64,000 nucleotides of DNA from Escherichia coli (lineage in GTDB: Bacteria > Pseudomonadota > Gammaproteobacteria > Enterobacterales > Enterobacteriaceae). Positions 4,362-60,168 of this stretch are shown one piece after another (within the stretch, counting starts at the first letter, position 1; every line of letters starts with the position of its first letter). Location: assembly GCF_024298765.1 (NCBI RefSeq), contig NZ_CP101210.1, one strand, 5' to 3'. A model generated the notes under the pieces. It was not told the origin of the DNA. It was given only the letters and a program-made list of their open reading frames with translations, and did no database searches. The position numbers and the translations under genes are program-made.

Positions 4362-4400
4362 CAGTGTATTGGTAGCTAAAAAGCCAGGGGCGGTAGCGTG
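4362..4400 (+). promoter_or_regulatory. JUMPstart element with ops (GGCGGTAGCGTG, 4389-4400) in colanic acid operon leader
   Basis: cagtgtattggtagctaaaaagccaggggcggtagcgtg about 180 bp upstream of wza; ops is the RfaH recruitment site. Confidence 0.85.
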
Positions 4401-8356: not shown

Positions 8357-8391
8357 GTAGGCCGGATAAGGCGCTCACGCCGCATCCGGCA
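8357..8391. repeat. REP element downstream of wzc
   Basis: GTAGGCCGGATAAGGCGC...GCCGCATCCGGCA palindromic unit. Confidence 0.7.
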
Positions 8392-13508: not shown

Positions 13509-14630
13509 ATGTCAAAAGTCGCTCTCATCACCGGTGTAACCGGACAAGACGGTTCTTACCTGGCAGAGTTTCTGCTGGAAAAAGGTTACGAGGTGCATGG
13601 TATTAAGCGTCGTGCATCGTCATTCAACACCGAGCGCGTGGATCACATTTATCAGGATCCGCACACCTGCAACCCGAAATTCCATCTGCATTATGGCGAC
13701 CTGAGTGATACCTCCAACCTGACACGCATTTTGCGTGAAGTGCAGCCGGATGAAGTTTACAACCTGGGCGCAATGAGCCACGTTGCGGTTTCTTTTGAGT
13801 CACCGGAATATACCGCAGACGTCGATGCGATGGGTACGCTGCGCCTGCTCGAGGCGATCCGCTTCCTCGGTCTGGAAAAGAAAACCCGTTTCTATCAGGC
13901 TTCCACCTCTGAACTGTATGGTCTGGTGCAGGAAATTCCGCAGAAAGAAACCACGCCGTTCTACCCACGCTCTCCGTATGCTGTCGCCAAACTGTACGCC
14001 TACTGGATCACCGTTAACTACCGCGAATCCTACGGCATGTACGCCTGTAACGGTATTCTCTTCAACCATGAATCCCCGCGCCGCGGCGAAACCTTCGTTA
14101 CCCGCAAAATCACCCGCGCAATCGCCAATATCGCCCAGGGGCTGGAGTCGTGCCTGTACCTCGGCAATATGGATTCCCTGCGTGACTGGGGCCACGCCAA
14201 AGACTACGTAAAAATGCAGTGGATGATGCTGCAACAGGAACAGCCGGAAGATTTCGTTATCGCGACCGGCGTTCAGTACTCCGTGCGTCAGTTCGTGGAA
14301 ATGGCAGCGGCACAGCTGGGCATCAAACTGCGCTTTGAAGGCACGGGTGTTGAAGAGAAGGGCATTGTGGTTTCCGTCACCGGGCATGACGCGCCGGGCG
14401 TTAAACCGGGTGATGTGATTATCGCCGTTGATCCGCGTTACTTCCGTCCGGCTGAAGTTGAAACGCTGCTCGGCGACCCGACCAAAGCGCACGAAAAACT
14501 GGGCTGGAAACCGGAAATCACCCTCAGAGAGATGGTGTCTGAAATGGTGGCTAATGACCTCGAAGCGGCGAAAAAACACTCTCTGCTGAAATCTCACGGC
14601 TACGACGTGGCGATCGCGCTGGAGTCATAA
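13509..14630 (+). CDS. gmd: GDP-mannose 4,6-dehydratase (colanic acid copy)
   Basis: 373 aa; Rossmann [10 protein letters not shown]; SDR active-site region. Confidence 0.95.
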
Positions 14631-14632
14631 GC

Positions 14633-15598
14633 ATGAGTAAACAACGCATTTTTATCGCTGGCCATCGTGGGATGGTCGGTTCTGCCATCAGGCGGCAGCT
14701 CAAACAGCGCGGTGATGTGGAACTGGTATTACGCACCCGCGACGAGCTGAACCTGCTGGACAGCCGCGCGGTGCATGATTTCTTTGCCAGCGAACGCATT
14801 GACCAGGTCTATCTGGCGGCGGCGAAAGTGGGCGGCATTGTTGCCAACAACACCTATCCGGCGGATTTCATCTACCAGAACATGATGATTGAGAGCAACA
14901 TCATTCACGCCGCGCATCAGAACGACGTGAACAAACTGCTGTTTCTCGGATCGTCCTGTATCTACCCGAAACTGGCAAAACAGCCGATGGCAGAAAGCGA
15001 GTTATTGCAGGGCACGCTGGAGCCGACCAACGAGCCTTACGCCATTGCCAAAATCGCCGGGATCAAACTGTGCGAATCTTACAACCGCCAGTATGGACGC
15101 GATTACCGCTCAGTCATGCCGACCAACCTGTACGGGCCGCACGACAACTTCCACCCGAGTAACTCGCACGTGATCCCTGCATTGCTGCGTCGCTTCCACG
15201 AGGCGACGGCACAGAATGCGCCGGACGTGGTGGTGTGGGGCAGCGGTACACCGATGCGCGAATTTCTGCACGTTGATGATATGGCAGCGGCGAGCATTCA
15301 TGTGATGGAGCTGGCGCACGAAGTCTGGCAGGAGAACACCCGGCCGATGCTGTCGCACATTAACGTCGGCACGGGCGTTGACTGCACTATCCGTGAGCTG
15401 GCGCAAACCATCGCCAAAGTGGTGGGTTACAAAGGTCGGGTGGTTTTTGATGCCAGCAAACCGGATGGTACGCCGCGCAAACTGCTGGATGTGACGCGCC
15501 TGCATCAGCTTGGCTGGTATCACGAAATCTCACTGGAAGCGGGGCTTGCCAGCACTTACCTGTGGTTCCTTGAGAATCAAGACCGCTTTCGGGGGTAA
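14633..15598 (+). CDS. fcl: GDP-L-fucose synthase (colanic acid copy)
   Basis: 321 aa; N-terminal GHRGMVGSA; immediately after gmd. Confidence 0.95.
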
Positions 15599-16080
15599 TG
15601 ATGTTTTTACGTCAGGAAGACTTTGCCACGGTAGTGCGCTCCACCCCGCTTGTCTCCCTCGACTTTATTGTTGAGAACAGTCGCGGCGAGTTTCTGCTTG
15701 GCAAAAGAACCAACCGCCCGGCGCAGGGTTACTGGTTTGTGCCGGGAGGGCGCGTGCAGAAAGACGAAACGCTGGAAGCCGCATTTGAGCGGCTGACGAT
15801 GGCGGAACTGGGGCTGCGTCTGCCGATAACAGCAGGCCAGTTTTACGGTGTCTGGCAGCACTTTTATGACGATAACTTCTCCGGCACGGATTTCACCACT
15901 CACTATGTGGTGCTCGGTTTTCGCTTCAGAGTAGCGGAAGAAGAACTGTTACTGCCGGATGAGCAGCATGACGATTACCGCTGGCTGACGCCGGACGCAC
16001 TGCTCGCCAGTGACAATGTTCACGCTAACAGCCGCGCCTATTTTCTCGCTGAGAAGCGTGCCGGAGTACCCGGATTATGA
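15598..16080 (+). CDS. gmm: GDP-mannose mannosyl hydrolase (Nudix)
   Basis: 160 aa; synteny after fcl. Confidence 0.9.
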
Positions 16081-18739: not shown

Positions 18740-18845
<106 letters not shown>

Positions 18846-21833: not shown

Positions 21834-23312
21834 ATGAGCTTACGTGAAAAAACCATCAGCGGCGCGAAGTGGTCGGCGATTGCCACGGTGATCATCATCG
21901 GCCTCGGGCTGGTGCAGATGACCGTGCTGGCGCGGATTATCGACAACCACCAGTTCGGCCTGCTGACTGTGTCGCTGGTGATTATCGCGCTGGCAGATAC
22001 GCTTTCTGACTTTGGTATCGCTAACTCGATTATTCAGCGAAAAGAAATCAGTCACCTTGAACTCACCACGTTGTACTGGCTGAACGTCGGGCTGGGGATC
22101 GTGGTGTGCGTGGCGGTGTTTTTGTTGAGTGATCTCATCGGCGACGTGCTGAATAACCCGGACCTGGCACCGTTGATTAAAACATTGTCGCTGGCGTTTG
22201 TGGTGATCCCCCACGGGCAACAGTTCCGCGCGTTGATGCAGAAGGAGCTGGAGTTCAACAAAATCGGCATGATCGAAACCAGCGCGGTACTGGCGGGCTT
22301 CACTTTTACGGTGGTTAGCGCCCATTTCTGGCCGCTGGCGATGACCGCGATCCTCGGTTATCTGGTCAATAGTGCGGTAAGAACGCTGCTGTTTGGCTAC
22401 TTTGGTCGCAAAATTTATCGCCCCGGTCTGCATTTCTCGCTGGCGTCGGTGGCACCGAACTTACGCTTTGGTGCCTGGCTGACGGCGGACAGCATCATCA
22501 ACTATCTCAATACCAACCTTTCAACGCTGGTGCTGGCGCGTATTCTCGGCGCGGGCGTGGCAGGGGGATACAACCTGGCGTACAACGTGGCCGTTGTGCC
22601 ACCGATGAAGCTGAACCCAATCATCACCCGCGTGTTGTTTCCGGCATTCGCCAAAATTCAGGACGATACCGAAAAGCTGCGCGTTAACTTCTACAAGCTG
22701 CTGTCGGTAGTGGGGATTATCAACTTTCCGGCGCTGCTGGGGCTGATGGTGGTGTCGAATAACTTTGTACCGCTGGTCTTTGGTGAGAAGTGGAACAGCA
22801 TTATTCCGGTGCTGCAATTGCTGTGTGTGGTGGGTCTGCTGCGTTCCGTAGGTAACCCGATTGGTTCGCTGCTGATGGCGAAAGCGCGGGTCGATATCAG
22901 CTTTAAATTCAACGTATTCAAAACCTTTCTGTTTATTCCGGCGATTGTTATTGGTGGGCAGATGGCGGGCGCAATTGGCGTCACGCTCGGCTTCCTGTTG
23001 GTACAGATTATCAACACCATTCTGAGTTACTTCGTGATGATTAAACCGGTTCTTGGTTCCAGTTATCGCCAGTACATCCTGAGTTTGTGGCTGCCGTTTT
23101 ATCTCTCGTTGCCGACGCTGGTGGTCAGTTATGCGCTGGGCATTGTGCTGAAAGGGCAACTGGCGCTGGGGATGCTGCTGGCGGTGCAAATAGCCGCGGG
23201 CGTGCTGGCGTTTGTGGTGATGATTGTGCTGTCGCGCCATCCGCTGGTGGTGGAAGTGAAGCGTCAGTTTTGTCGCAGCGAAAAAATGAAAATGCTTTTA
23301 CGGGCGGGGTGA
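21834..23312 (+). CDS. wzxC: Colanic acid repeat-unit flippase
   Basis: 492 aa polytopic membrane protein; synteny. Confidence 0.9.
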   Translation: MSLREKTISGAKWSAIATVIIIGLGLVQMTVLARIIDNHQFGLLTVSLVIIALADTLSDFGIANSIIQRKEISHLELTTLYWLNVGLGIVVCVAVFLLSDLIGDVLNNPDLAPLIKTLSLAFVVIPHGQQFRALMQKELEFNKIGMIETSAVLAGFTFTVVSAHFWPLAMTAILGYLVNSAVRTLLFGYFGRKIYRPGLHFSLASVAPNLRFGAWLTADSIINYLNTNLSTLVLARILGAGVAGGYNLAYNVAVVPPMKLNPIITRVLFPAFAKIQDDTEKLRVNFYKLLSVVGIINFPALLGLMVVSNNFVPLVFGEKWNSIIPVLQLLCVVGLLRSVGNPIGSLLMAKARVDISFKFNVFKTFLFIPAIVIGGQMAGAIGVTLGFLLVQIINTILSYFVMIKPVLGSSYRQYILSLWLPFYLSLPTLVVSYALGIVLKGQLALGMLLAVQIAAGVLAFVVMIVLSRHPLVVEVKRQFCRSEKMKMLLRAG

Positions 23313-23329
23313 GTTGCTGTTTTCGGTTC

Positions 23330-23535
23330 CGACAACGGTTGCCGGATGCGGCGTAAAACGCCTTATCCATCCTACGGTTCCGTGCTCGGGACCTGTAGGC
23401 CTGATAAGACGCGTCAGCGTCGCATCAGGCACTGAATGCCGGATGCGGCGTGAACGCCTTATCCGGCCTACGGTTCTGTGCTCGGGTCTTGTAGGCCTGA
23501 TAAGACGCGTCAGCGTCGCATCAGGCAAAAAGCGG
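23330..23535. repeat. BIME: about four REP palindromic units in alternating orientation, with an internal ~96-bp tandem duplication
   Basis: Alternating GCCGGATGCGGCGT(A/G)AACGCCTTATCC and GGCCTGATAAGACGCGTCAGCGTCGCATCAGGC units; the long track ORF 23314-24867 reads through them artefactually. Confidence 0.8.
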
Positions 23536-23586
23536 CAACGAACAAAACAAACACAGCCCACCTGGCATCAAATTTATGAGGAAAAA

Positions 23587-24867
23587 ATGAAATTACTTAT
23601 TCTGGGCAACCACACTTGCGGCAATCGTGGCGACAGCGCCATCCTGCGCGGCTTACTTGATGCCATCAACATCCTCAATCCACACGCCGAAGTGGACGTG
23701 ATGAGCCGCTATCCGGTCAGTTCTTCCTGGCTGCTCAACCGCCCGGTAATGGGCGATCCGCTGTTCCTGCAAATGAAACAACACAACAGCGCGGCGGGCG
23801 TTGTCGGGCGCGTTAAAAAAGTCCTCCGTCGCCGCTACCAGCATCAGGTATTGCTCTCACGCGTCACCGACACTGGCAAGCTGCGTAATATCGCCATCGC
23901 CCAGGGATTCACCGACTTCGTGCGCCTGCTGTCAGATTACGACGCCATTATTCAGGTCGGCGGATCGTTTTTTGTCGATCTCTACGGCGTGCCGCAGTTT
24001 GAACATGCACTTTGCACGTTTATGGCGAAAAAGCCGCTGTTTATGATTGGTCACAGCGTCGGTCCCTTCCAGGATGAGCAATTTAACCAACTGGCGAACT
24101 ACGTTTTTGGTCACTGCGACGCGCTGATCCTGCGCGAATCGGTCAGCCTTGATCTGATGAAACGCAGCAATATCACTACCGCAAAAGTGGAACATGGCGT
24201 CGATACCGCGTGGCTGGTCGATCACCACACAGAAGAATTCACCGCCAGCTATGCCGTTCAACACTGGCTGGACGTTGCCGCACAACAGAAAACGGTGGCA
24301 ATTACCCTGCGCGAACTGGCACCGTTCGACAAACGTCTCGGCACCACTCAACAAGCGTATGAAAAAGCCTTTGCCGGGGTGGTCAATCGCATTCTCGACG
24401 AAGGCTATCAGGTTATTGCGCTCTCCACCTGTACGGGCATCGACAGCTATAATAAAGACGACCGCATGGTGGCGCTCAATCTTCGCCAGCACATCAGCGA
24501 TCCTGCCCGTTACCACGTGGTGATGGATGAACTCAACGATCTGGAAATGGGCAAAATTCTCGGAGCCTGTCAACTCACCGTCGGTACGCGTCTGCACTCA
24601 GCCATTATCTCGATGAATTTCTCCACTCCGGCAATTGCCATCAACTACGAACATAAATCCGCCGGGATTATGCAGCAGCTGGGGCTGCCAGAGATGGCGA
24701 TCGATATCCGTCATTTATTAGATGGCAGCCTGCAAGCGATGGTTGCGGATACCTTAGGCCAGCTTCCGGCGCTGAACGCACGACTTAGCGAAGCCGTCAG
24801 TCGCGAACGTCAGACGGGAATGCAGATGGTGCAATCTGTGCTTGAGCGCATCGGGGAGGTGAAATGA
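23587..24867 (+). CDS. wcaK: Colanic acid pyruvyl transferase
   Basis: Start taken at MKLLILGNH (426 aa) downstream of the REP cluster; synteny. Confidence 0.9.
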   Translation: MKLLILGNHTCGNRGDSAILRGLLDAINILNPHAEVDVMSRYPVSSSWLLNRPVMGDPLFLQMKQHNSAAGVVGRVKKVLRRRYQHQVLLSRVTDTGKLRNIAIAQGFTDFVRLLSDYDAIIQVGGSFFVDLYGVPQFEHALCTFMAKKPLFMIGHSVGPFQDEQFNQLANYVFGHCDALILRESVSLDLMKRSNITTAKVEHGVDTAWLVDHHTEEFTASYAVQHWLDVAAQQKTVAITLRELAPFDKRLGTTQQAYEKAFAGVVNRILDEGYQVIALSTCTGIDSYNKDDRMVALNLRQHISDPARYHVVMDELNDLEMGKILGACQLTVGTRLHSAIISMNFSTPAIAINYEHKSAGIMQQLGLPEMAIDIRHLLDGSLQAMVADTLGQLPALNARLSEAVSRERQTGMQMVQSVLERIGEVK

Positions 24868-30011: not shown

Positions 30012-30050
30012 CAGTGAGTTGGTAACTGTTAAGCCAAGGGCGGTAGCGTG
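30012..30050 (+). promoter_or_regulatory. JUMPstart element with ops (GGCGGTAGCGTG, 30039-30050) in O-antigen operon leader
   Basis: cagtgagttggtaactgttaagccaagggcggtagcgtg; same 39-bp architecture as the wza leader copy. Confidence 0.85.
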
Positions 30051-33318: not shown

Positions 33319-34440
33319 ATGGCTAAAGTCGCTCTCATTACTGGCATAACCGGACAAGACGGTTCTTACCTGGCAGAGTTTCTGCTGGAAAAAGGTTACG
33401 AGGTGCATGGTATTAAGCGTCGTGCATCGTCATTCAACACCGAGCGCGTGGATCACATTTATCAGGATCCGCACACCTGCAACCCGAAATTCCATCTGCA
33501 TTATGGCGACCTGAGTGATACCTCCAACCTGACGCGCATTTTGTGTGAAGTGCAGCCGGATGAAGTGTACAACCTTGGCGCAATGAGTCACGTTGCGGTC
33601 TCTTTTGAGTCACCGGAATATACCGCAGACGTTGATGCGATGGGTACGCTGCGCCTGCTCGAGGCGATCCGCTTCCTCGGTCTGGAAAAGAAAACCCGTT
33701 TCTATCAGGCTTCCACTTCTGAACTGTACGGTCTGGTGCAGGAGATTCCGCAGAAAGAGACCACGCCGTTCTACCCACGCTCTCCGTATGCAGTCGCCAA
33801 ACTGTACGCCTACTGGATCACCGTTAACTACCGCGAATCCTACGGCATGTACGCCTGTAACGGTATTCTCTTTAACCATGAATCCCCGCGCCGCGGCGAA
33901 ACCTTCGTTACCCGCAAAATCACCCGCGCAATCGCCAACATCGCACAGGGGCTGGAGTCGTGCCTGTACCTCGGCAATATGGATTCCCTGCGTGACTGGG
34001 GCCACGCCAAAGACTACGTAAAAATGCAGTGGATGATGCTGCAACAGGAACAGCCGGAAGATTTCGTCATCGCTACCGGCGTTCAGTATTCCGTGCGTCA
34101 GTTCGTGGAAATGGCGGCAGAGCGAGTCGGAATCAAACTGCGTTTTGAAGGCGCAGGTGTAGATGAGAAAGGGATAGTGGTTTCTGTTAATGGTGAGGAT
34201 GCTCCAGCAGTTAAACCTGGAGATGTAATCGTTAAGGTTGACCCGCGTTACTTCCGTCCGGCTGAAGTTGAAACACTGCTCGGCGACCCGACCAAAGCGC
34301 ACGAAAAACTGGGCTGGAAACCGGAAATCACCCTCAGAGAGATGGTGTCTGAAATGGTGGCTAATGACCTCGAAGCGGCGAAAAAACACTCTCTGCTGAA
34401 ATCTCACGGCTACGACGTGGCGATCGCGCTGGAGTCATAA
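33319..34440 (+). CDS. gmd: GDP-mannose 4,6-dehydratase (O-antigen copy)
   Basis: 373 aa; near-identical to colanic acid gmd apart from a divergent patch at about 34110-34255. Confidence 0.95.
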
Positions 34441-34442
34441 GC

Positions 34443-35408
34443 ATGAGTAAACAACGCATTTTTATCGCTGGCCATCGTGGGATGGTCGGTTCTGCCATCA
34501 GGCGGCAGCTCAAACAGCGCGGTGATGTGGAACTGGTATTACGCACCCGCGACGAGCTGAACCTGCTGGACAGCCGCGCGGTGCATGATTTCTTTGCCAG
34601 CGAACGCATTGACCAGGTCTATCTGGCGGCGGCGAAAGTGGGCGGCATTGTTGCCAACAACACCTATCCGGCGGATTTCATCTACCAGAACATGATGATT
34701 GAGAGCAACATCATTCACGCCGCGCATCAGAACGACGTGAACAAACTGCTGTTTCTCGGATCGTCCTGTATCTACCCGAAACTGGCAAAACAGCCGATGG
34801 CAGAAAGCGAGTTATTGCAGGGCACGCTGGAGCCGACCAACGAGCCTTACGCCATTGCCAAAATCGCCGGGATCAAACTGTGCGAATCTTACAACCGCCA
34901 GTATGGACGCGATTACCGCTCAGTCATGCCGACCAACCTGTACGGGCCGCACGACAACTTCCACCCGAGTAACTCGCACGTGATCCCTGCATTGCTGCGT
35001 CGCTTCCACGAGGCGACGGCACAGAATGCGCCGGACGTGGTGGTGTGGGGCAGCGGTACACCGATGCGCGAATTTCTGCACGTTGATGATATGGCAGCGG
35101 CGAGCATTCATGTGATGGAGCTGGCGCACGAAGTCTGGCAGGAGAACACCCGGCCGATGCTGTCGCACATTAACGTCGGCACGGGCGTTGACTGCACTAT
35201 CCGTGAGCTGGCGCAAACCATCGCCAAAGTGGTGGGTTACAAAGGTCGGGTGGTTTTTGATGCCAGCAAACCGGATGGTACGCCGCGCAAACTGCTGGAT
35301 GTGACGCGCCTGCATCAGCTTGGCTGGTATCACGAAATCTCACTGGAAGCGGGGCTTGCCAGCACTTACCTGTGGTTCCTTGAGAATCAAGACCGCTTTC
35401 GGGGGTAA
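34443..35408 (+). CDS. fcl: GDP-L-fucose synthase (O-antigen copy)
   Basis: 321 aa; nucleotide-identical to colanic acid fcl across the whole gene by line-by-line comparison. Confidence 0.95.
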
Positions 35409-35911
35409 TGATGTTTTTACGTCAGGAAGACTTTGCCACGGTAGTGCGCTCCACCCCGCTTGTCTCCCTCGACTTTATTGTTGAGAACAGTCGCGGCGAG
35501 TTTCTGCTTGGCAAAAGAACCAACCGCCCGGCGCAGGGTTACTGGTTTGTGCCGGGAGGGCGCGTGCAGAAAGACGAAACGCTGGAAGCCGCATTTGAGC
35601 GGCTGACGCTTGCGGAACTGGGGTTGCGTCTGCCGATAACAGCAGGCCAGTTTTACGGTGTCTGGCAGCACTTTTATGACGATAACTTCTCCGGCTCGGA
35701 TTTCACCACTCACTATGTGGTGCTCGGTTTTCGCATCAGAGTAGCGGAAGAAAAGCTGTTACTGCCGGATGAGCAGCATGACGATTACCGCTGGCTGACG
35801 CCGGACGCGTTGCTCGCCAGTGACAATGTTCACGCTAACAGCCGAGCTTATTTTAATCATGATCCAAGAGCTGTTATTGGTTTAGATAAAAAGGATGTCA
35901 AAAATGTCTGA
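35408..35911 (+). CDS. gmm: GDP-mannose mannosyl hydrolase (O-antigen copy, divergent C-terminus)
   Basis: 167 aa; first ~145 aa near-identical to colanic gmm, then diverges after ...NSRAYF; 3' end overlaps manC. Confidence 0.85.
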
Positions 35912-57084: not shown

Positions 57085-57120
57085 AATAAAAAAGCCCCCG
57101 GAAGGTGATCTTCCGGGGGC
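57085..57120 (-). terminator. his attenuator terminator hairpin
   Basis: GCCCCCGGAAG...CTTCCGGGGGC stem followed on the minus strand by a T-run; lies between hisL and hisG. Confidence 0.85.
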
Positions 57121-57184
57121 TTTCTCATGCGTTCATGTACCACTGGAAGATCTGAATGTCTTCCAGCACACATCGCCTGAAAGA

Positions 57185-57235
57185 CTAGTCAGGATGATGG
57201 TGATGATGGTGGTGTTTAAATTGAACGCGTGTCAT
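57185..57235 (-). CDS. hisL: his operon leader peptide (7 consecutive His codons)
   Basis: Minus-strand ORF ATG ACA CGC GTT CAA TTT AAA CAC CAC CAT CAT CAC CAT CAT CCT GAC TAG = MTRVQFKHHHHHHHPD. Confidence 0.95.
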   Translation of the reverse strand: MTRVQFKHHHHHHHPD

Positions 57236-59902: not shown

Positions 59903-59987
59903 AGAAAAATTATTATGACAAGCCTCTCATTCTCTTGTCATTTCCCCCCCATTTAGGCACAATGCGCCGCTGTCAAAAAATGACTAA

Positions 59988-60020
59988 AAACCGACGTTTC
60001 ATCAGCGTCGGTTATTTTTT
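59988..60020 (+). terminator. Rho-independent terminator after yeeY
   Basis: AACCGACG...CGTCGGTT hairpin followed by ATTTTTT. Confidence 0.7.
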
Positions 60021-60168
60021 GCTTCAAACCAATCATTCATACCAAGAGGCCGGGCTTCGTACCGGATAGATATTTACTAAAAATCGACAGTTGTTGTCGC
60101 TGAGGAATCCAAAAAAATGGGGCAATTTTTTGCTTACGCGACGGTTATCACCGTAAAGGAGAATGACC

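Follow-up and report, generated by a model that had tools for sequence, protein, structure and literature searches.

BIME-1 elements pair a Y with a Z1 REP across a long L linker, in which an IHF site lies. Rho-dependent BIME attenuators are a further class (Espeli 2001; REP325 in Harris 2026). BIME-2 elements consist of z2 and y REPs joined by a short S linker and repeated in tandem, and their copy number varies between strains at each locus (Ton-Hoang 2012, PMC3333891). The REP325 array, whose units have been described as Y and Z2 hairpins (PMC4550694), lies between yjdM and yjdN, where it cuts the downstream yjdN about 8- to 10-fold and stabilises the upstream yjdM (bioRxiv 10.64898/2026.03.23.713779). 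REP hairpins also halt 3'-to-5' exonucleases, and many Rho-terminated transcripts have their steady-state 3' ends at such hairpins (PMC6061677). The wzxC-wcaK gap itself has been recorded: the K-12 listing gives REP144 (NC_000913.3, 2118467-2118652) in the tandem pair wzxC-wcaK (bioRxiv 10.64898/2026.03.23.713779, supplement), and Iguchi et al. 2011 found REP insertions and deletions there in six O157 strains, with two REPs in some and four in another, as well as a sequence-similarity junction at this gap (PMC3158064). Thus, REP/BIME arrays, their copy variation between strains and the wzxC-wcaK locus are already known, and since both the element and its polymorphism have been described, finding the array here is ordinary. 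What the present survey adds is a population-scale spectrum of unit numbers, 0 to 7, at a single site inside an operon, which could serve as a typing marker.

The array studied here lies in a window of 64,000 nucleotides from Escherichia coli, the whole stretch of DNA that was analysed. Gene names follow the RefSeq annotation of strain BS74R-D, whose genome matches this stretch with 100% identity. The upstream neighbour is wzxC, the colanic acid flippase gene (21834..23312, + strand; ORF list and RefSeq annotation), and the downstream neighbour is wcaK, which encodes a pyruvyl transferase of 426 aa with no stop and begins with the ATG of 23587..24867 (+ strand; RefSeq). The 274-nt gap between them contains four REPs, alternately Y, Z2, Y and Z2, which span positions 23340-23527. 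Our results show that this array is a canonical BIME-2, the element catalogued in K-12 as REP144. In support of this, it consists of Y and Z2 REPs in alternating orientation, with short linkers of 19 nt (S-like) and 5 nt and a copy number that varies between strains.

REP 1, of the Y type (TGCCGGATGCGGCG...CCATCCTAC), occupies 23340..23375 on the + strand, and the foot of its stem is degenerate, with CCATCC in place of CCGGCC. A tail-to-tail, S-like linker of 19 nt (23376..23394, +) separates it from REP 2 (23395..23431, - strand), which is of the Z2 type and inverted relative to REP 1, as indicated both by an exact match to the Z2 head and tail and by the inverted repeats. The head-to-head linker CTGAA (23432..23436, +) closes the first, 97-nt unit. 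REP 3 (23437..23471, +) is a canonical Y with 0 mismatches to the Y head and tail, and is followed by the second S-like linker (23472..23490, +) and by REP 4 (23491..23527, -), an inverted Z2 that ends the repeated element. A Hamming scan with Y and Z2 head and tail strings gave exact matches to both types, and placed two Y REPs on the + strand and two Z2 REPs on the - strand.

Several other analyses agree with this arrangement. The array contains two Y-S-Z2 units of 96/97 nt that are 92-93% identical, and as present in the window they measure 97 nt (23340-23436) and 91 nt, because the trailing linker is absent from the last unit. Tandem Repeats Finder reported a single array at 23340-23527 (period 96, 1.9 copies, 92% matches, score 327), and a repeat search of the array region found a direct repeat of 75 nt with 93% identity and a spacing of 96. 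The inverted repeats agree with the alternating orientation of the REPs, tail-to-tail and then head-to-head. In a comparison with 5,426 complete E. coli genomes, the matches at other places run precisely from 23340 to 23527 (query positions 211-398), which marks these two positions as the limits of the repeated element. The original prediction, a BIME of about four REP units inside the wca operon, is thus borne out. It had also described a duplication of about 96 bp, and this repeat is real; the register proposed for it, 23380-23475 with the second copy from 23476, is equivalent but shifted by 40 nt, and since the repeat runs from 23340 to 23527, the second copy would hold only 52 nt in that register. 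The same prediction called this an internal tandem duplication, but it is no special event: Y/Z2 alternation, a short linker and tandem copies are what defines BIME-2, so the duplication is the ordinary (Y-S-Z2)n architecture of the family.

On its left, the array is bordered by a unique flank (23313..23339, +), recognised from the minimum free energy structure and by comparison with the 0-unit allele, which includes the left copy of a flanking direct repeat, CGACAACG (23330-23337). The right unique flank (23528..23586, +) is the A/C-rich, G-poor leader of wcaK, with a GC skew of -0.28 and an AT skew of +0.76 at 23520-23569; within it lie CGGCAACG (23533-23540), which is the direct repeat's right copy, and GAGG (23578-23581), the Shine-Dalgarno sequence of wcaK. 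A homologue of the right flank is also present in the 0-unit allele, of which the representative, L001, has just one copy of CGGCAAT, located within a small GTTGTTTT/AAAACAAC hairpin.

Several further candidate features were considered and rejected. An N-terminal extension of WcaK, or a REP-encoded peptide, is suggested by a 517-aa ORF with a TTG start (23314-24867) that runs through the array in the wcaK frame. This frame is open across the array owing to a 1-nt deletion and a 1-nt insertion in the wcaK leader of this strain relative to REP144 of K-12; in 8 other alleles it is closed 15 to 45 codons before the ATG, and the 517-aa ORF is therefore a chance open frame in one strain. REPs located no more than 15 nt past a stop codon reportedly control translation, as described by Liang, Rudd and Deutscher in 2015. 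Here 27 nt separate the end of the wzxC stop (23312) from the start of the first REP (23340), which places the array outside the 15-nt rule. An internal promoter or an intrinsic terminator in or near the array was rejected as well, since neither a sigma-70-like promoter nor a terminator-like site was found on either strand between 23000 and 23900. Finally, the array differs from BIME-1 in that its second REP is Z2, its linkers are of 19 nt and 5 nt, and no IHF consensus (WATCAANNNNTTR) occurs in it on either strand, even with one mismatch allowed. The original prediction had named gyrase or IHF as the proteins bound by such arrays; because IHF belongs to BIME-1, this narrows to gyrase.

The sense RNA of the array is predicted to be strongly folded. 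The computed energy was -145.4 kcal/mol, compared with -98.7 +/- 5.1 kcal/mol for shuffled sequences (z = -9.2, with 0 of 100 shuffles as good), so that the modelled structure of the repeat is far beyond chance. In the predicted fold, REP 1 and REP 4 are each self-paired and REP 2 pairs with REP 3, and the flanks at 23313-23323 and 23528-23539 pair with each other, enclosing the whole array. Stable hairpins are thus predicted 3' of wzxC, as would be required of an mRNA stabiliser. Co-transcribed in the polycistronic mRNA, the array would form very stable hairpins, and these would most plausibly bar 3'-to-5' exonucleases and so shield the upstream segment (...wcaJ-wzxC). By analogy with REP325, which stabilises yjdM and cuts yjdN, the array should protect the upstream message and could attenuate wcaK-L-M.

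Next, we measured the size of the array across E. coli. The two unique flanks were fused into one query, so that the insert in any genome could be sized from the span of its match. Queries of 206+231 nt and 500+500 nt found the locus in 4,641 and 4,677, respectively, of 5,426 complete genomes, and an evenly spread sample of 60 rows was read for each. This gave 118 informative rows, with at least 2 genomes present in both samples. Unit number lay between 0 and 7 (0 to 14 REPs), and two other allele types were also present in the 118 rows. Two units was the commonest state (39 rows, 33.1%), a class inflated by laboratory K-12 derivatives. No unit was present in 15 rows (12.7%) and one unit in 18 (15.3%), with 3 further rows (2.5%) carrying one unit with a 34-nt internal deletion. 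Larger arrays had three (6 rows, 5.1%), four (11 rows, 9.3%), five (13 rows, 11.0%), six (5 rows, 4.2%) or seven units (1 row, 0.8%). The remaining 7 rows (5.9%) carried an unrelated 161-nt box-C-like insert, with the palindrome CCCTCACCCTAACCCTCTCCCC...GGGGCGAGGGG, which is complete in 275 of the 5,426 genomes, including E. coli B laboratory strains. The original prediction had held that the unit count may vary between strains and had proposed comparing it across E. coli genomes; the comparison confirms this, since the arrays differ, with 0 to 7 units in 118 rows, and are not identical in all strains.

For every unit number between 0 and 7, a representative sequence was inspected base by base. 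The intergenic lengths were 71, 179, 275, 372, 468, 564, 661 and 760 nt, respectively, and in these representative sequences each added step is a clean 96/97-nt unit. In all of them wcaK is annotated as a normal CDS, with no pseudogene flag. The possibility that the 0-unit alleles sit on an unusually divergent haplotype was rejected: their coding flanks are 97.7-97.9% similar to the window, about as similar as those of most other alleles, and these alleles differ only in the intergenic remainder. Regarding the distribution among clones, all the K-12 derivatives sampled had two units, all the O157:H7 strains sampled had one and one O55:H7 strain had none, and two ST131 genomes carried identical 4-unit arrays. 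Copy number is thus a property of the lineage, constant within the sampled clones, and not a fast switch. The natural allelic series of 0 to 7 units provides material to test the effect of BIME-2 copy number on a downstream cistron.

The units themselves carry traces of how the array changes size. When all units were aligned, the 5'-most one proved to be a recognisable anchor common to many arrays, with a degenerate Y foot and a GGGACC linker. The same unit haplotypes come back in blocks; in L006, an array of five units, the second and the fourth are identical, and in the 4-unit array 97-nt and 96-nt units alternate. The 7-unit array has private linker variants in all seven units, and units differ on average at 5.0 positions within arrays and at 7.0 between arrays. 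This pattern of an anchor, blocks and likeness within arrays is the expected product of in-register unequal recombination or slippage of resident units. From these sequences we infer that the array would grow and shrink as its 96/97-nt units recombine unequally, in register, or slip during replication; a role of the REP-associated transposase (RAYT, TnpA-REP) is possible.

The sequences on the two sides of the array often differ in their history. Thus, L004 and L092 differ at 33 of 470 sites in the left flank and at 6 of 440 in the right, and L006 and L007 show 2 differences in the left flank and 12 in the right. Recombination in the colanic-acid/O-antigen region appears often to resolve at or near the array, which would then act as a homology patch. 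The discordant flank histories also fit the similarity junction that Iguchi et al. placed at the wzxC-wcaK gap (PMC3158064).

Taken as a whole, these observations are best explained if the BIME-2/REP144 element is a tolerated passenger repeat with modest local effects and no dedicated role as a copy-number regulator, and we consider this reading likely. Under it, any attenuation of wcaK-L-M would probably be weak: RNA polymerase modified by RfaH is resistant to Rho, and no repeat unit can be finished without WcaK and WcaL. The colanic-acid operon around the array is controlled by RcsAB and RfaH. RfaH counteracts Rho. The wza leader contains a JUMPstart element (4362..4400, + strand; Rfam RF01707, 57.3 bits against a gathering threshold of 35) with an exact ops site, GGCGGTAGCGTG (4389-4400), and ChIP has located RfaH on wza-wcaM in CFT073 lacking H-NS and StpA (PMC9765446). 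In repeat-unit synthesis, the final two steps fall to WcaK and WcaL (PMC12826051); they are needed for each repeat unit, and strong polarity should therefore harm the cell.

Among the alternatives, an unlikely one is that the array is a strong gyrase binding and cleavage site which clears the positive supercoils of this heavily transcribed operon of about 20 kb, more units giving more capacity. Gyrase cleavage in vivo is over-represented in BIME-2 elements, mainly at Y REPs (PMC6379681), and the array is a BIME-2 with two Y REPs, so that by analogy gyrase binding at wzxC-wcaK is plausible. However, the same study found that only a subset of BIME-2s is cleaved and that the signal is independent of transcription, and the REP144 locus does not appear in the accessible part of the supplementary text of this Topo-seq paper (PMC6379681). 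Moreover, about 13% of the sampled genomes have 0 units and about 6% the unrelated insert, with the operon intact.

It is quite unlikely that the array works as a rheostat, a partial Rho-dependent attenuator in which each unit lowers wcaK-L-M relative to the upstream genes, so that lineages set the ratio of wcaK-L-M to upstream genes by the number of units. The original prediction had made this inference, that copy number may modulate wcaK-M; the available evidence lends it no support and, indirectly, leans against a strong effect. The best precedent is REP325, a 6-unit Y/Z2 array that is partly Rho-dependent, gives a ladder of hairpin-ended transcripts and lowers yjdN 8- to 10-fold; by this analogy, an attenuation of 8- to 10-fold at wzxC-wcaK would be possible. 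REP-containing tandem gene pairs in K-12 are biased on average towards the upstream gene, the untranslated gap, 71 nt in the shortest allele, reaches 760 nt in the longest, and the A/C-rich, G-poor stretch 3' of the array is the arrangement described for Rho-dependent 3' ends (PMC6061677). Against this, the operon carries the JUMPstart/ops leader, which recruits RfaH, and is reported to be occupied by this Rho antagonist, as set out above, and the table of REP-associated Rho-utilisation in vitro in K-12 lists no sense-strand rut peak for REP144, only a weak antisense, NusG-dependent one (log10 enrichment 0.37; bioRxiv 10.64898/2026.03.23.713779). The array is also oriented opposite to REP325 and its sense linkers are not C-rich. 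Basal K-12 RNA-seq values, which are low counts from uninduced cells in a column taken as baseMean from the layout of the table, step up across the array, from 48 for cpsB, 37.5 for wcaJ and 36 for wzxC upstream to 91 for wcaK, 162 for wcaL and 144 for wcaM downstream. Finally, both WcaK and WcaL are required per repeat unit, so that strong polarity should be harmful, and copy number is fixed within the sampled clones, with no switching. Should copy number nevertheless tune wcaK-L-M, it would offer a simple non-coding route to variable output of a capsule-like polysaccharide.

The same gap was then compared across species, using loci from species-representative genomes found with WcaK as the query; the wzxC-wcaK gap could be measured in 78 species. 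Its median is about 29 nt, and in 49 of the 78 it is 40 nt or less and holds no repeat. A gap of more than 100 nt was found between wzxC and wcaK in 17 of 75 species, compared with 3 of 76 for wcaJ-wzxC, 0 of 80 for wcaK-wcaL and 0 of 66 for wcaL-wcaM. The E. coli representative has a single Y-Z2 unit in the gap, E. whittamii a lone Z2 and Citrobacter amalonaticus a Y-type pair. Box-C-like palindromes occupy it in Pseudenterobacter, Pluralibacter, Lelliottia, an Enterobacter isolate (kpr-6), Buttiauxella and several further Enterobacteriaceae, at least 8 other species genomes carrying such inserts, and all the inserts are strongly structured. This is evidence that palindromic repeats land preferentially at the wzxC-wcaK junction in the Enterobacteriaceae, the simplest reason being that this junction is the widest non-overlapping junction in that part of the operon. 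That palindromic repeats enlarge the gap in many other genera could also signal selection for structure, an observation that speaks against a mere passenger.

Selection for a structured spacer is possible. Strong RNA or DNA structure would then be useful at the junction between the flippase and the late transferases, a benefit that would explain the repeated colonisation of the site by unrelated palindromic families in Enterobacteriaceae. We regard this as decidedly improbable. The excess of long gaps at wzxC-wcaK over the neighbouring junctions argues for it, as do the strong structure common to unrelated families, REP-type in Escherichia and Citrobacter amalonaticus and box-C-like elsewhere, and the occurrence of two alternative inserts within E. 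coli. However, short gaps without a repeat predominate (49 of 78 species) and 0-unit alleles are common in E. coli; therefore, no structure is required. The baseline gap at wzxC-wcaK is the largest of the four, with a median of 29 nt and never an overlap, and the junction is therefore simply the most permissive target; in addition, the species counts are phylogenetically non-independent.

The rheostat and spacer readings can be joined, in that the spacer would be selected and independently colonised, with the 0-7 BIME-2 units setting, lineage by lineage, how much WcaK/L/M is made relative to the flippase and the early enzymes. This is very improbable; if it were true, the completeness of the colanic acid repeat unit and the sequestration of Und-P could be affected.

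The weakest alternative concerns the head-to-head Z2 + Y pair at 23398..23468. On the - strand, in antisense to the operon, it matches the Rfam naRNA4 model (RF02564), which derives from REP325, with 79.7 bits, the gathering threshold being 59.5; on the + strand, in operon sense, it reaches 55.4 bits, the lower score because the array is transcribed opposite to REP325. That this pair is expressed as a small HU-binding RNA which condenses the chromosome is extremely improbable: the match exceeds the threshold, and naRNA4 and its complement do condense DNA with HU in vitro (Qian 2015, PMC4550694), but only the antisense strand scores above gathering, no promoter-like site was found on either strand at 23000-23900, the model is in effect any Y/Z2 pair, and a 2026 preprint reports REP325 and naRNA4 without measurable nucleoid compaction (bioRxiv 10.64898/2026.03.23.713779).

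A tolerated passenger BIME-2 with modest local effects therefore remains our preferred reading, and it can be set beside the systems already described. With the polymorphism reported by Iguchi et al. 2011 it has the gap in common, six strains having been examined there and 118 sampled rows here, with 0 to 7 units. In the malE-malF and hisJ-hisQ stabilisers (Newbury 1987, Stern 1988), REP hairpins likewise lie in an intercistronic gap of a polycistronic message, from which they can obstruct 3'-to-5' decay of its upstream part; in those systems the effects on upstream and downstream expression were measured, whereas at wzxC-wcaK they are deduced from the predicted structure.

REP325 is 83% identical to the array over 188 nt (two units), and both are tandem Y + Z2 arrays between co-directional genes of an operon; this likeness and the naRNA4 match bear out the typing of the REPs as Y and Z2. 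They differ in that REP325 has six units of 100 nt and the wzxC-wcaK array two of 96/97 nt, and their orientation relative to transcription is opposite, so that the sense RNA at wzxC-wcaK is of the complement type of REP325 and its linkers therefore do not have REP325's C-rich character. The wca operon is set apart from REP325 by its ops/RfaH leader. With the BIME-2 family (Bachellier 1994, Ton-Hoang 2012) the array shares the alternating Y and Z2 REPs, the short linker, the tandem copies, the variable copy number at one locus and the extragenic position, with no difference found. At the same locus, K-12 MG1655 carries this very element as REP144, its two Y-Z2 units lying in an intergenic region of 275 nt, compared with 274 nt here; the two elements are separated by point differences only, the first Y REP reading CCGTCC in K-12 and CCATCC in the present strain.

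Our results suggested that the wzxC-wcaK junction of the colanic-acid (wca) operon is a favoured insertion point for palindromic repeats. Among the wcaK loci taken from species-representative genomes of the Enterobacteriaceae (L011-L090), unrelated palindromic repeats enlarge this junction far more often than the neighbouring ones: gaps longer than 100 nt occurred at wzxC-wcaK in 17 of 75 species, compared to 3 of 76 at wcaJ-wzxC, 0 of 80 at wcaK-wcaL and 0 of 66 at wcaL-wcaM. Moreover, when E. coli alleles were compared, the distances in the wzxC flank of the array (left) disagreed with those in the wcaK flank (right). For example, L004 and the 7-unit allele L092 differ at 33 positions on the left and at 6 on the right, while the flanks of the 5-unit allele L006 and of L007 show 2 differences on the left and 12 on the right. 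This discordance indicates that recombination has had its breakpoints at the array or close by.

An alternative E. coli allele of the gap lacks REPs. In this allele (L009, 484-644) the gap holds an insert of 161 nt that includes a box-C-like palindrome, and the wcaK leader is different. The insert allele was present in 275 of the 5,426 complete E. coli genomes, and its carriers include the E. coli B laboratory strains, one APEC O1:K1:H7 strain and other isolates. Note that the wzxC and wcaK flanks had no match, at megablast sensitivity, in about 750 of these 5,426 genomes, which may have no colanic-acid cluster, for instance if they belong to lineages with group 1 capsule loci. In 13 to 15 genomes of the collection the flank queries matched two separate places; these genomes could carry longer arrays, or insertion sequences inside the array.

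In the source strain, an imperfect 8-nt direct repeat lies on either side of the array, at 23330-23337 (CGACAACG) and 23533-23540 (CGGCAACG). The allele without any unit (L001, 484-554) has one copy of the repeat, CGGCAAT, within the loop that a small hairpin (GTTGTTTT/AAAACAAC) forms. On the basis of this single site, the arrangement looks like a target-site duplication, or else like the outcome of a precise deletion between the repeats. To our knowledge, target-site duplications have not been reported for REPs.

For the REP144 region of K-12, which corresponds to window 23313-24867, a published basal RNA-seq table gives wcaK, wcaL and wcaM counts 2.5 to 4 times those of wcaJ and wzxC, these being low counts from uninduced cells in columns whose meaning was deduced from the table layout. 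The higher distal counts hint that uninduced cells use an internal start not recognised before, or that their distal segment is more stable. A consensus scan of both strands of window 23000-23900 detected no promoter-like site. The source strain is alone in having the wcaK frame open across the entire array, as a TTG-initiated ORF of 517 aa in the ORF list (23314-24867); in eight other alleles this frame is closed at 15 to 45 codons before the wcaK start codon, ATG.

Further along the window, JUMPstart/ops occurs a second time, at 30012-30050 (RF01707, 52.5 bits). Instead of following galF directly, this element lies 3' of a gene annotated as an O126-family wzy and overlaps the beginning of the coding sequence annotated after it. 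Therefore, wzy appears to precede the antitermination signal in the O-antigen cluster. The window also contains two gmd-fcl pairs, one in the colanic-acid cluster (about 13509-15600) and the other in the O126-type O-antigen cluster (about 33793-35900), and short motifs recur 19,810 nt apart. As expected, since the his region adjoins the O-antigen locus, the Rfam models of the histidine operon leader (57086-57209, minus strand, 131.7 bits) and of the sRNA STnc240 (59948-60022, plus strand, 68.2 bits) matched as well.

Finally, other REPs were observed in and near the wca operon. A second BIME within the operon occupies the cpsB-cpsG gap (18740-18843). There, the cpsB stop is immediately followed by a Z2 remnant, and then come a Y REP (about 18761-18794) and a Z2 REP in inverted orientation (about 18806-18842). 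This BIME is followed, just upstream of cpsG, by a match to the Rfam algC RNA motif (RF02929, 18878-18927, 78.2 bits). A Z2-type REP is located upstream of yegH (about 2084-2120), and a single Y-type REP in the wzc-wcaA gap (8357-8391). Since REPs occupy three gaps, wzc-wcaA, cpsB-cpsG and wzxC-wcaK, the wca operon is divided into four segments. The wzc-wcaA REP site is described as conserved in all the strains studied by Iguchi 2011 (PMC3158064).
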